Shown piece by piece: positions 36,001-45,000 of a stretch of 64,000 bases of DNA. Numbering within the stretch: the first letter of the stretch is position 1; every line of letters starts with the position of its first letter. The position numbers are program-made. Source of the stretch: Escherichia coli (lineage in GTDB: Bacteria > Pseudomonadota > Gammaproteobacteria > Enterobacterales > Enterobacteriaceae); assembly GCF_050320075.1 (NCBI RefSeq), contig NZ_CP190018.1; one strand, given 5' to 3'.

Positions 36001-39000
36001 GCTGGCCGATGCGGGTGGTGCGCAGCGAATAGCGCTGACCATGCTGAATTATTTCGGGAAAAATAAACTTGACTGGGCAGTGGTCTGTTCGGCGTTTATT
36101 GTCGGTATCGCACTTTTTTTCGAAGTCGGTTTAATTCTTCTGGTACCTATTTTATTCGCTATTGCCCGTGAAGCAAAAATATCACCGATGTTTATGTGTG
36201 TGCCGATGCTTTCTGGTTTGCTGGTCGCACACGGTTTTTTGCCGCCGCACCCCGGCCCGACTGTTATCGCCAGGGAATATGGCGCTGATGTAGGATTGGT
36301 ACTGATATACGGTATCATTGTCGGCATTCCAACCTTTATTCTTTGCGGCCCGGTATTGAATAAATTCTGCCAGCGCATTATTCCGGACGCCTTTAAAAAA
36401 GAGGGGAATATAGCCTCTCTCGGCGCGACCCGCCGATTCAGCGAAAGCGAAATGCCAGGCTTTGGGATCAGTTTTCTCACGGCAATGCTGCCGGTGATCC
36501 TGATGGCGGTTGTCACCATCATCCAGATGACTCATGCCAAAAGTGCCGCGGATTCTGGCTTATTTTACAACGTGATACTGTTCTTAGGTAATTCGACGAT
36601 CGCCATGCTGATTTCACTGCTGTTCGCGATCTATACCATGGGCCTGGGGCGCGGGAAAACAATCCCTGACCTGATGGATTCTTGCGGAAAAGCTATCGCG
36701 GGTATTGCCGGTCTGCTGCTGATTATCGGTGGTGGTGGTGCATTCAAGCAAGTTCTCATCGACTCTGGCGTTGGTCAGTATATTTCCACCCTGGTTTCGG
36801 GTATGGATATTAACCCGATCTTGATGGCCTGGGGCGTGGCCGCATTCCTGCGTATTTGTCTGGGTTCAGCCACCGTCGCGGCGATCTCTACCGCCGGTCT
36901 GGTCATCCCATTGTTGGCAGTACATCCCAATACCAACCTGGCCTTGATTACGCTGGCTACCGGTGCCGGATCCTGTATTTGTTCTCACGTTAACGATGCC
37001 AGTTTCTGGATGATTAAAGACTTTTTTGGCCTGACCACCAAAGAAACGCTGTTATCCTGGACGTTGATGTCCACACTCTTATCCATCAGTGGGCTGATTT
37101 TTATTCTGCTCGCCAGCTTAGTTTTATAATCGGGTTCTTGCCAGTGAGCCAACCTGTTGTTCACTGTCCCCCATAATTTAGTGAGTGACGGCAACCGTCT
37201 GCACGGTGACGAATCGCTGGCGATCAAAAAGGGGCGATATTGAACCGTCGATTATGCTTGATGGGTGTACTCTCAGTAATACTGTAAAGCCGGAGCATGT
37301 CTCCGACTTTACAGTATGGGGGAACAGCAGGCGATCGCTCAAATGGTATGCTGGTTTATTTCATGTAAAAGAATAAAATATCTGTATAAAATCATGCCAC
37401 TGGCAATCTGCATCAACTCTCCGGGTAAACAGGGTTAAGATGAGCATTTCCCCGGTTTAATACAGGTATACAAAAGTGGATAGAGATCAAACAAACAGCA
37501 GCCTGTTCAATGATGATCCCGTACTTCATGCAACATGGCTGTACTATCAGGAAGGCAAAAGCCAGACTGAAGTTGCAGCTATCATGGGGGTGTCCCGCGT
37601 CACGGTTGTCAAATACCTGCAAACAGCCCGGGAAAATGGACTGGTTCATATCAACCTGGATGTGAATGTCTTTGGCTCTATCGACGCTGCTTTGCAAATT
37701 CGCGATAAATTCAATCTCCAGAGAGTGATCATCGTGCCGGATGGCGAACATGCCGGAAAACGTGATGATACAAAGCTGATGCGGACTCGCCTTTCACGTG
37801 CCGGTGGCATGTATCTGAATCAGGTGATTGAGAATGGTGATGTGCTGGGGGTTGCCTGGGGAAGAACAATCCATCAGATGAGCAAAACCATGACGCCGAA
37901 GTCATGTAAAAATGTCACCGTTATACAGATGCTCGGTTCCATGCCATCTCAGCCAGACCTGACGATCATTGAATCCTCATCGCAAATCGCCTACAAGCTT
38001 TCAGGCCGTGTCGCCTCGCTGCACGTGCCCGCCGTGGTATCAAGCGCCAGACTGGCCATGGAGTTACAGGCAGAGCCTATTATTCGATCGAATTTTGACG
38101 TTCTGACTCGCTGTACGAAAGCCTTTTTTGTCGTGGGTAACGCGCTTGATGAAAATCCCCTGATTCGGGTGGGCGTGCTGAATAAGAAGGAAATGCAGAC
38201 GTATCGGGATTTAGGCGCAGTAGGTGTCATTTGTGGTCGCTTCTATGACAAGGAAGGGATGCCCGTCGTGGCTGATGTTGACCAGCGTATTCTGGGAATC
38301 AGTCTGGCTCAGCTAAGGCAGATTGAACGGAAGATCTTCCTTGCTGGTGGGGAAAGAGGCTATGACGCAACGTTGGGTGCCCTGCTGGGAGGATATGTCA
38401 CGGACCTGATTGTTGATGAAGGAACGGCAGAGTTTTTGCTGGCGTGTGAATTACCACACTAAAAGAATGAACAACTGCCCCATGTGGATATGGGGCAGGA
38501 TTTTATTGATTAGCGGCGATAATAAGAACAATACCCACAATGTATGAAATAAACATGGTCAGCAGCAGTTTATTGGTTCCGGCTGGCGCACTGGCAAATT
38601 CTCTCCAGATGAAGACTCCCCAGATCACGGCAATCATTGTGGCCCCCTGTCCCAGACCGTAGGAAATGGCATACCCCGCCTGACCAGACGCAATCAGACT
38701 GAATGCCAGACCGACACACCAAATCATACCGCCCAGCCAGCCGCAAACATGATCCCGTAAGCTCCCGGAAAAATACATTTTCCCGTTGACCGGTTCTCCT
38801 GAAATAGGTTTTTTCATGACCAGCGTGTTAAGGACAAAGTTCGACAAGAACAGCCCCACGGCAAACAGAACAAGTGCTGAGTAAGGCGTCATCAGACCGC
38901 TGGCAGGCTGGCTGAAATTGTCAGACATGGAGTCCGCCAAGAAGCGGAAAAACCATCCCATGATGATACCCGCCAGAATGGCAGTAATGAGACCTTTATT

Positions 39001-42000: not shown

Positions 42001-45000
42001 TTCAAAGTGAAGACGTAAAGCTTCAGTGATCCAGGTCCGGTGTTTCATACGATAGTGTCCATTAAAAATGATGGACATTATTTTTGTAGAGCCGGAGGAA
42101 ACAGACCAGACGGTTTAAATGAGCCGGTTACGTTGTATTCGCCCATGAACCCCAGCAAATCATGGTAATAAAACACATTATTATGGCGACAGCATACGAT
42201 TCCACGATAAACATAAATAACTCCTTGTGGTAGTTATAATCAATCGTTGTGGACAGAGGGAATAGCAGCCATTCTGCGAATGGCTGTCATATGTTATTAA
42301 TTAAAATAAAGCTGTAATTACGCTTTCAAACCATACGTTTTGAATTTTTCAAGGACGATGGTCATTTCGGCTTCAGACAGCACGGGAACATCGTGATGTA
42401 ATCCGCCACATTTGATGTATAAATCAGCCAGCGTCTCGGTTTCACCCGCCAGCCACAACGTCTTTTCCAGCGTGACGTCCATGGCCAGCATACCGTGGTG
42501 CTGCATCAGCAAGGACTTACTTTCTCTGATTCCTTTAGATACACCGTCGGCCAGTTCAGGACTGCCAAAGGTATAATAGGGAATACAGGGAATATGATCC
42601 GTCCCCGATACCGCCACCATATAATGAATGGCCGGAATTGAATGATTATGTATTGCCACCGCCGTGGAATTCACCGCATGCGTATGTATGACAGCATTCA
42701 ATTCTGGTCTGGCTTTATAACACGCCAGATGAAATAACCATTCACTTGATGGTATTTTACCCGCTTCAGGTATTCCCTTATCGTCTACAAAGACAATCAT
42801 GTCCGGCGTCATCTTTGAATAAGCGATCCCACTCGGCGTAATCAACATGCCACCGGTATACCTGGCACTCACATTACCTGATGTTCCTTGATTAAGACCT
42901 GACGCATTCATTTCCCGACAAGTGGAAATGATTTTTTCTGCTAACTTAATCCGTTCCATTCCTGATCCTTAATAGCAATGGCCGCCGTTTTAATGCTGTT
43001 CCCCCTGGAGTGCTTTACTCTTCAGGTCAGCAAACATATCCGCCAGCGCTGACTTACTGGCAGCACAGACTCCCCGCTCAGTAATGAAGCCGGTAATGTA
43101 TCGGGCAGGCGTGACGTCGAAAGCGTAGTTCCCACAACGGGTTCCTTCAGGGGCGGTATTGACCCAGCTCAATTCTCCCTGAGGGTTTATCCCATAGACA
43201 TGGGACTGCTCTTTTCCGTCACGTTGCTCAATCGGAATGCTTTTTCCGTCCTCGATAGTCCAGTCAATAGTGGGAGAAGGTAACGCGACGTAGAAGGGAA
43301 CATGGTTATCATGGGCCGCCAGCGCCTTAAGATAGGTACCAATTTTATTACAGACATCCCCTCTGGCCGTGGTTCGATCGGTCCCAACAATGCAGAGATC
43401 AACGTCACCGTGTTGCATCAGGTGGCCACCCGCGTTGTCGGCGATCAGGGTGTGAGGAATACCGTGTGAGCCCAGTTCAAATGCCGTGAGTCCGCCCTGA
43501 TTACGTGGCCGCGTTTCATCCACCCAGACGTGAACAGGGATTCCGTTTTCATGCGCTTTGTAGATGGGAGAAAGCGCGGTTCCCCAGTCTACAGTCGCCA
43601 GCCAGCCTGCGTTACAATGTGTCAGGATATTGACCACACTCCCGGCCGGTTTTTTCTGGGCTATTTCGCGGATGACTTCTGTACCATGTAATCCAATTTG
43701 TTCACACAACGCGACATCTTCCTCGGCAATTTCTGCCGCCAGCGCCCAGGCCACATCCTTGCGCTCTGATACACAGAGATCCTTCAGTGTGTCTATCATC
43801 CTGTCGAGGGCCCATTTGAGATTAATTGCCGTTGGTCGGGTTTTGATAAGAAGGTCATAGTAACGCTGCAGACCCATGTCACTGGCATCGTGATTCATTC
43901 CCAGCGCGATGCCATAGGCTGCAACGACACCAATAAGCGGAGCGCCACGAACCCACATCTCCTGAATAGCCGTAGCGGCCATTTCCGCAGAGGTAAGCGC
44001 CACCACCTCGAACTTAAAAGGCAACTTAGTCTGATCGATGATTTCTACCGCTTTTCCATCCCCGGAAACCCAGACCGTACGATAGTGTTTACCTTTAATA
44101 TTCATAATGACCTCTTACTTAACCTTCGCAGACTGGATGACGGAATCCATATTTTTAAACTGGCGGGCATTGACGATAAGATCGCGCGCCATGGTCAATG
44201 CACGTCGTTCACATCCTGCGCGAAGCTCTGTATTTTCAATCTGTTTCAGCTCGGCAACGCCAGCAAAACCAATGATCCGGCGATTCATTTCCATGCCGGC
44301 ATTCACCAGGGAATCTTCAAGCAGCGTGGCAAAAAACTGATCCTGTGCGTCCTCAAGAGCGGCCCTGTTCTGTTGATACATTTCTGTCGGCCACGCGTCG
44401 CCCTGTGTTTTGTTGTCCCAGAGCTGGCGGAACTCCCGGGTGAAAACGGACCAGGTTTGGACAATCTGCTGAAGCAGCCATTCCTGATAGTCAGCGCGAC
44501 GTTGCTCATTCGCATCCCACCCAGGGCGTGAGAAGTACGCCAGCAGGAGGTTGCCAATATAGTTGCCGATATCAAACGCCATTGGCCCCATGAAACCGAA
44601 CTCCGGATCAATCACTTTGGTATCCGTGTCGGTCACCATGATTGAGCCTGAATGAAGGTCGCCATGTAACAATGCCTGCGCTTCTGTCATAAATTTGTAC
44701 TTATAACGCATGGCAACCTGGATCATCTCTACATCAGCCCAGGCCTTATGGACGGCATCGTCCAGCTCAGGAGAAGTCCAGTTATTCCGTTCAGCGTTGT
44801 AATAGGGCTCTGTGAAGATCAGATCTTCCGTAATTTTGCACAGCTCATGATTCAACGCGAACTCGGCAGTAAGCGCTTTTTTCTGTTCTGCTGACATGCC
44901 AATGTCAGACGTATTGAAGAGAGTCTGTGCTAAAAATCTGCCGATATCTTCAGCTAGTTTAGGGAATTTTTTACCGTTAATCAGTTCCTTACGCAGAATC

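Follow-up and report, generated by a model that had tools for sequence, protein, structure and literature searches.

A complete copy of the IS66-family element ISCro1 was found to interrupt the transporter gene of a DHAP-shunt operon in a 64-kb window of Escherichia coli DNA (the window being the whole stretch analyzed, 64,000 nucleotides). An 8-bp target-site duplication borders the element, the uninterrupted allele is present in other E. coli genomes and the insertion is rare among them. A simple insertion of ISCro1 into the transporter gene, most likely generating a null allele, is almost certainly the best overall explanation of these data. It is an event of an already-known kind, namely the routine IS-mediated decay of an accessory gene. 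The features of the locus are collected in Table 1.

Table 1. Features of the interrupted operon and of the inserted element, in window coordinates
Feature	Position	Strand	Remarks
yjhU/mtnR, repressor	37476..38462	+	annotated WP_000373366.1; function from PMC12632272
G+C-rich hairpin between convergent transporter and yjhU/mtnR genes	38475..38498	.	terminator-like on both strands
Transporter 3' fragment	38503..39424	-	from within codon 28 to the stop after codon 334
Target-site duplication, copy 2	39425..39432	.	GTTGTATT
ISCro1 (IS66 family), complete, 2,699 bp	39433..42131	-	genes co-directional with the interrupted operon
Terminal inverted repeat, tnpC end	39433..39454	.	GTAAGCGACTCGTCAGAACCGT
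tnpC, IS66-family transposase, 523 aa	39463..41034	-	NF033517, 477.9 bits (cut-off 180), residues 106-501
tnpB, accessory protein, 115 aa	41054..41401	-	NF033819, 128.9 bits (cut-off 50)
tnpA, accessory protein, 225 aa	41401..42078	-	NF038385, 295.8 bits (cut-off 150); annotated WP_001339397.1
Terminal inverted repeat, tnpA end	42110..42131	.	reverse complement GTAACCGGCTCATTTAAACCGT
Target-site duplication, copy 1	42132..42139	.	GTTGTATT; coding strand AATACAAC, codons 26-28; single-copy in the empty site
Transporter 5' fragment, codons 1-25	42140..42214	-	first hydrophobic segment; 100% match to intact allele
AAGGAG ribosome-binding site of transporter gene	42221..42226	-	6-nt spacer to ATG at 42212-42214
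ald2 (class II aldolase, fuculose-phosphate-aldolase-like), third gene	42318..42959	-	intact; NF005984, 364 bits (cut-off 264)
mtnA (5-methylthioribose-1-phosphate isomerase), second gene	42990..44105	-	intact; TIGR00512, 410 bits (cut-off 279)
mtnK (5-methylthioribose kinase), first gene	44115..45374	-	intact; TIGR01767, 522 bits (cut-off 275)

Identity of the inserted element

A preliminary description of this DNA, which proved accurate in each detail checked, had placed the element in the IS66 family, and this assignment was borne out, all three encoded proteins scoring above the curated NCBIfam cut-offs. The transposase is a TnpC of the IS66 type, and tnpA and tnpB are closely packed upstream of its gene on the same strand, the tnpA stop and the tnpB start overlapping by 1 nt and tnpC starting 19 nt past tnpB. 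Elements of the IS66 family have imperfect terminal inverted repeats starting with GTAA. In line with this, the two ends GTAAGCGACTCGTCAGAACCGT and GTAACCGGCTCATTTAAACCGT match at 16 of the first 22 positions and carry imperfect GTAAGCG/GTAACCG repeats; an 8-bp duplication, also a feature of the family, is present as well. More specifically, the transposase is identical to one that RefSeq names 'IS66-like element ISCro1 family transposase' (WP_000381395.1, annotated 'ISCro1 family transposase'), which indicates that the element is ISCro1, and over its positions 1-2699 it was 100% identical to many copies annotated as ISCro1 in E. coli chromosomes and plasmids. Copies with 100% nucleotide identity are present in Salmonella as well.

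The element is single-copy within the window. A composite transposon, or recombination through a second ISCro1 copy or fragment, was considered and rejected, neither a second copy nor a fragment being present in the window. Three independent ISCro1 copies measured 2,699 bp between their duplications, which leaves unexplained the figure of 2,824 bp quoted for a copy in ST131 (PMC8764528).

Borders of the insertion and the empty site

Reading of the sequence placed identical GTTGTATT octamers at 39425-39432 and 42132-42139, abutting the element on both sides at exactly the coordinates previously given. This octamer was counted only four times on the plus strand of the whole window, and the chance that two octamers exactly border an IS is about 1 in 65,536. 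One further GTTGTATT lies within ISCro1 itself, at 40945.

The preliminary description had called for an uninterrupted allele in related genomes, and one was found that is 100% identical across the junction: the reconstructed empty site of 285 nt, with one octamer, was recovered without mismatch from many genomes. Counting a genome as positive when it held at least 80% of the 285 nt in one piece, the empty site was present in 1,225 of 5,426 complete E. coli genomes. The full reconstructed coding sequence of 1,005 nt also occurs elsewhere uninterrupted and 100% identical, for instance in CFSAN064035 and PC-NDM34, and in ATCC 11775 an intact transporter gene is annotated at the same position, between yjhU and the aldolase gene. 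The insertion junction was found in only two complete genomes, those of YZLc1-3 (chicken, China) and Ec-U3 (human urine, Burkina Faso). No difference separates the window from YZLc1-3 across 40,300 bases, and a single mismatch in 28,147 bases separates it from Ec-U3. The insertion had been termed recent, which holds in a relative sense only, since its two carriers came from different hosts on different continents.

The interrupted gene and its product

When 38503-39432 was joined to 42140-42214 on the minus strand, a sequence of 1,005 nt was obtained, divisible by three and encoding a 334-aa protein that starts with MFIVESYAVAIIMCFITMICWGSWANTTKLVSNKKWEF. Removal of the element and one octamer thus restored the reading frame, with the ATG, the hydrophobic N-terminus and the AAGGAG motif that had been predicted; about 1,200 complete E. 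coli genomes encode uninterrupted homologues with exactly this N-terminus. The upstream piece comprises exactly 25 codons, in agreement with the reported split at codon 25. Translation and hydropathy analysis indicated that it runs through the octamer into the IS end, where the terminal GTAA supplies a TAA stop, giving a 28-aa peptide, MFIVESYAVAIIMCFITMICWGSWANTT. In the downstream piece the first start is an in-frame TTG at 39360, with none upstream of it, and an in-frame TGA lies just within the IS.

The protein had been described as GRP/RhaT-like. At the level of the DMT superfamily this was upheld, the NCBIfam and Pfam profile matches of the reconstructed transporter being exclusively to DMT-type families and a crude hydropathy scan showing some 9-10 hydrophobic segments along its 334 residues. 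At the family level the matches were weak: Sugar_transport (PF06800) scored 27.0 bits (E 3.7e-6), below the 40.3 and 37.2 bits obtained with Ureide_permease (PF07168), and the NCBIfam RhaT profile scored 27.6 bits against a cut-off of 369. In RefSeq the product is named 'GRP family sugar transporter' or, in a few records, 'multidrug DMT transporter permease'.

Operon context

The transporter gene had been noted to adjoin the yjhU sugar regulator. The adjacency is correct; the fuller context, missed at the time, is that the gene is the fourth and last of a mtnK-mtnA-ald2-transporter DHAP-shunt operon, of which YjhU is the repressor MtnR (PMC12632272). The characteristic layout is present: mtnK, mtnA and the class II aldolase gene adjoin one another in one direction, the transporter gene comes next, and yjhU/mtnR is convergent to them; ald2 is equal in length to the ATCC 11775 copy. 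The four genes are reportedly co-transcribed, 5-deoxyribose inducing them about 7.5 log2-fold and MtnR and glucose/CRP repressing them; the transporter is termed only 'putative' in the literature, and strains with the shunt 'invariably' have its gene (PMC12632272). Rfam families and tRNAs (leuX, regulatory RNAs near the operon) were searched for in the whole window and none was found.

Consequences of the insertion

Taken together, the observations indicate the following course of events. In an E. coli lineage carrying the DHAP-shunt operon at the end of the leuX island, a copy of ISCro1 transposed into the chromosome and duplicated the 8-bp target AATACAAC at codons 26-28 of the transporter gene. 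The insertion parts the promoter, the ribosome-binding site and the first 25 codons, which specify the first membrane segment, from the other 309 codons; the upstream piece ends after 28 residues at the IS-supplied TAA, and the downstream piece lacks a start codon until native codon 50. As to the earlier claim of inactivation, the split was confirmed, together with the premature stop and the lack of an upstream start, and from these features we infer that the gene of this putative 5-deoxypentose/5-methylthioribose importer is most likely a null allele. Because the three enzyme genes are intact, uptake alone should be affected; mtnK, mtnA and ald2, as well as the repressor gene mtnR, are untouched by the insertion, and DHAP-shunt substrates would probably be taken up less efficiently, with no wider physiological effect.

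Two readings differ from this one on the structure or the function of the split gene. That the octamers arose by chance or belong to the IS termini, the gene having been split earlier or by a more involved route such as a rearrangement between two copies of an IS, has practically no likelihood, and nothing was found to speak for it. In the many genomes with the empty site the junction contains exactly one octamer and matches at 100% identity, collinearity with ATCC 11775 extends through both flanks of the insertion site, and two other 100%-identical ISCro1 copies end on the same bases and bear unrelated 8-bp duplications, ACATAAAA and CTCCCTGT. Since these copies carry different octamers, the duplication is derived from the target and not from the element, and on these grounds the octamers were rejected as chance repeats or as part of the IS. 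It is likewise highly improbable that the remnant at 38503-39360 still works as an N-terminally shortened transporter of 285 aa, initiated at the TTG of native codon 50 and transcribed from a promoter in or at the IS end. The frame is indeed open over 285 codons, and RefSeq/PGAP annotates it as an ordinary, intact CDS in both genomes (WP_215197741.1, 285 aa, in YZLc1-3; 281 aa in Ec-U3), in neither case as a pseudogene. However, such a protein would lose the first hydrophobic segment entirely and roughly half of the next one, as judged by hydropathy; the TTG encodes an internal leucine in the native protein and has no good Shine-Dalgarno sequence; and the annotated starts disagree, as they typically do when ORFs are called automatically on a gene fragment. 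In addition, a consensus scan detected no outward-facing promoter-like site at the tnpC end of the IS at the chosen stringency, and the total of promoter-like sites did not exceed shuffled expectation; as negative evidence this is weak.

A further alternative concerns the consequence of the null allele and not its structure: other E. coli sugar transporters might take up the DHAP-shunt substrates, and the insertion would then be a neutral mutation hitch-hiking in one clone. This is possible, although we consider it somewhat unlikely. In its favor, K-12, which is devoid of this transporter save for a 58-nt remnant, grows on 5 mM 5-deoxyribose when provided with plasmid-borne mtnK, mtnA and ald2 alone (PMC10986504), so that a strain without the transporter may show a slight phenotype or none at high substrate concentration. 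Against it, about 1,214 of the genomes with the gene retain it in intact form. The gene is also co-induced with the enzymes and is reported to be invariably associated with the operon (PMC12632272), which argues for selection; this would probably act on uptake when physiological concentrations are low. Two more speculative ideas are improbable. The natural knock-out may itself have been selected in this clone, for example by avoiding uptake of toxic 5-deoxy-sugar analogues. Separately, the operon might be read through into tnpA-tnpB-tnpC: ISCro1 lies directly behind ald2 in the same orientation and no terminator-like site was found between them on the coding strand, so that read-through from the promoter controlled by MtnR and CRP could occur, in which case transposition would be inducible by 5-deoxyribose and glucose limitation.

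With inactivation as the favored interpretation, the two isolates constitute ready natural mutants for asking whether the putative transporter matters at physiological levels of 5-deoxyribose or 5-methylthioribose. The finding also bears on annotation: both insertion-bearing genomes show the remnant in RefSeq as an intact 'GRP family sugar transporter', so that a survey of DHAP-shunt gene content would count both strains as complete.

Comparison with known systems

ISCro1 was first named in Citrobacter rodentium ICC168, and in C. rodentium it is reported to be the most expanded IS, with 24 copies (PMC3072379). The element described here shares its tnpA-tnpB-tnpC order, GTAAGCG-type imperfect repeats and 8-bp duplication, and its proteins are identical to the RefSeq 'ISCro1 family' entries WP_000381395.1, WP_000624622.1 and WP_001339397.1. 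No structural difference was apparent, and the insertion site alone is peculiar to this lineage. In ST131 the regulatory region of afa/dr is likewise a site of simple insertions of a resident IS (ISCro1, IS1 or ISEc10), which alter the expression or integrity of an accessory fitness locus (PMC8764528); unlike these, ISCro1 lies here within a coding sequence, whose product it truncates. The operon itself agrees with the DHAP-shunt operon of extraintestinal pathogenic E. coli (ATCC 25922) in gene order, in being bordered by yjhU/mtnR on one side and by the variable portion of the leuX island on the other, in the 799-bp region from mtnK to the ORF WP_000788354 (window 45375-46173) and in its intact enzyme genes. 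It differs in that the fourth gene is interrupted by ISCro1, which places this lineage among the rare exceptions that carry a broken copy.

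Identity and borders of the inserted element

The 2,699-bp segment at 39433-42131 lies directly between two copies of the octamer GTTGTATT (39425-39432 and 42132-42139); reading of the sequence and a script agreed that these are identical and abut the element exactly. The segment ends in imperfect inverted repeats (GTAAGCGACTCGTCAGAACCGT versus GTAACCGGCTCATTTAAACCGT) that match at 16 of 22 positions. Two further identical copies in E. coli E2865 have the same first and last bases, each with an 8-bp duplication of its own: one, flanked by ACATAAAA, splits an S49 peptidase gene, and the other is flanked by CTCCCTGT. 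Because identical copies carry different and unrelated duplications, the borders are correct and the octamers are target duplications, which rules out that they belong to the IS termini. No second copy or fragment of the element was found elsewhere in the 64-kb window.

The IS66-family membership proposed in the preliminary description was borne out by NCBIfam profiles, with all three proteins, encoded by tightly spaced ORFs on the minus strand, exceeding the curated cut-offs (see Table). Copies that match the full 2,699 bp at 100% identity are numerous among complete E. coli genomes, and RefSeq names their transposase 'IS66-like element ISCro1 family'. Similar sequence occurs in 3,017 of 5,426 complete E. 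coli genomes, 1,492 of them with at least 80% of the element in one place, and identical copies are also found on E. coli and Salmonella plasmids, mostly conjugative. The name ISCro1 comes from Citrobacter rodentium, a species in which no other IS has expanded as far (24 copies; PMC3072379). Its size is given as 2,824 bp in a study of ST131 (PMC8764528), versus 2,699 bp between the target duplications of the three independent identical copies considered here.

Table. Genes of the element and of the operon upstream of the transporter
Gene	Coordinates	Strand	Remarks
tnpC transposase	39463-41034	-	523 aa; NF033517, 477.9 bits (cut-off 180)
tnpB	41054-41401	-	115 aa; 1-base overlap with tnpA ORF; NF033819, 128.9 bits (cut-off 50)
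tnpA	41401-42078	-	225 aa; NF038385, 295.8 bits (curated cut-off 150)
Class II aldolase (ald2)	42318-42959	-	Intact, above family cut-off
mtnA	42990-44105	-	Intact, above family cut-off
mtnK	44115-45374	-	Intact, above family cut-off

The interrupted gene

Without the element and one octamer, 38503-39432 and 42140-42214 form a single ORF of 1,005 nt (334 codons plus stop), with its ATG at 42212-42214 and AAGGAG 6 nt upstream; frame, N-terminus, start codon and ribosome-binding site are exactly as first described. Precisely 25 codons lie 5' of the insertion, and the duplicated octamer falls in codons 26-28. Uninterrupted alleles, 100% identical across the junction, were found in related genomes: many match the reconstructed 285-nt empty site at 100% identity, and almost its full length is present in 1,225 of the 5,426 complete E. 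coli genomes, its matches being always annotated 'GRP family sugar transporter', and the reconstructed coding sequence is uninterrupted and 100% identical in several genomes, with at least 80% in one piece in 1,214. The type strain, ATCC 11775, carries an intact 1,005-nt gene (WP_000471147.1) at the same place, between yjhU and a fuculose-phosphate-aldolase-like gene, with 5 nucleotide and 2 amino-acid differences from the reconstruction.

Of the earlier designation 'GRP/RhaT-like', only the general type was retained. The protein has about ten hydrophobic segments and matched Pfam Ureide_permease at 40 and 37 bits and Pfam Sugar_transport (GRP) weakly, at 27 bits, whereas NCBIfam RhaT scored 27.6 bits, far below its cut-off of 369. 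Judged from these loose profile matches, which leave strict GRP membership unproven, it is therefore classed as a DMT-superfamily permease.

The 5' fragment now translates as MFIVESYAVAIIMCFITMICWGSWANTT, ending at a TAA made by the IS terminal GTAA. An in-frame TGA inside the IS precedes the 3' fragment, whose first start codon is a TTG at native codon 50. This agrees with the proposed inactivation, and from the sequence we infer a null allele, since a product devoid of membrane segment 1 and of half of segment 2 would be non-functional. RefSeq/PGAP nevertheless labels the remnant (38503-39360; NZ_CP123240.1 4414072-4414929) a regular 'GRP family sugar transporter' CDS, free of any pseudogene mark, of 285 aa from TTG in E. 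coli YZLc1-3 (WP_215197741.1) and 281 aa in Ec-U3 (WP_244586182.1), and gives the 25-codon 5' fragment no annotation at all. Because the remnant is called intact in both genomes, the disruption is hidden from gene-content surveys.

The operon and its regulator

The mtnK, mtnA and aldolase genes together with the transporter constitute the DHAP shunt of extraintestinal pathogenic E. coli, a context missed in the preliminary description. 5-Deoxyribose raises expression of this operon about 7.5 log2-fold, YjhU (renamed MtnR) acts as its repressor, and CRP also controls it (PMC12632272). The interrupted gene is thus the last of the operon, and the neighbouring 'yjhU sugar regulator', correctly noted earlier, encodes the operon's own repressor. 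Published read depth is similar over all four operon genes. The 103-nt ald2-transporter spacer contains a near-perfect hairpin with a 10-bp stem (42265-42287; GCAGCCATTC-TGC-GAATGGCTGT), which has no T-run 3' on the coding (minus) strand and might act in RNA stabilization or processing within the operon.

Since the enzyme genes all precede the insertion site, catabolism as such would be expected to proceed normally; how strong a phenotype transporter loss would cause, if any, is uncertain. K-12 supplied with mtnK, mtnA and ald2 alone grew on 5 mM 5-deoxyribose (PMC10986504). Of the transporter gene, K-12 MG1655 retains no more than the final 58 nt (2501-2558 of its comparison locus, L008), and therefore other permeases can import the substrate at high concentration. 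Near-universal retention of the transporter beside the operon suggests that it matters at low concentration.

Distribution and age of the insertion

Over 40,300 bases, no difference separates the window from YZLc1-3 (chicken faeces, China). Among the other complete genomes, the insertion junction recurs only in Ec-U3, from human urine in Burkina Faso. This strain shows 1 mismatch in 28,147 bases and an additional 768-bp IS1B upstream of an McrB-family gene (28148-28915 of its locus, L003), absent from the window. The two Ec-U3 alignment blocks share 9 bp at 47421-47429, which would fit IS1, an element that duplicates 9 bp of its target. Presumably, both isolates belong to one clone. The claim that the insertion was recent held in part: such an event would fit the perfect duplication, the identity of the IS to many copies and the unmutated remnants, 100% identical to intact alleles, but it is old enough to be common to two epidemiologically distant isolates, from China and Burkina Faso.

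Comparison with known loci

In K-12 MG1655 the 58-nt remnant has yjhU on one side and an IS1F copy on the other, beyond which lies fecIR; this arrangement suggests that an IS1-associated deletion removed the operon together with the remaining island in the K-12 lineage. Short transporter remnants only are present in about 380 genomes (1,596 with any match versus 1,214 with at least 80%).

Next to the operon, the island's variable part (47532-55553) contains a defence cluster made up of McrB/McrC-family genes and of two methyltransferases that accompany an Alw26I/Eco31I/Esp3I-type restriction endonuclease; CbtA/YeeU toxin-antitoxin and antirestriction genes lie beyond. Upstream of the sgc cluster, at 21291-25360 (2009-6080 of comparison locus L002), several genes are annotated as decayed, among them a frameshifted fragment of a phosphorothioation-dependent restriction endonuclease, yjhR with an internal stop, and a frameshifted yjhQ adjoining the YjhX (TopAI) toxin gene.

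Neither the element (ISCro1) nor the operon (DHAP shunt) is new, and gene disruption by an IS is a known process; the original interpretation is supported with the refinements described. Beyond about 46113 the sequences of ATCC 11775 and the window diverge; the 799-bp region from mtnK to WP_000788354 in the published DHAP-shunt locus (PMC12632272) is the same in the window, at 45375-46173.
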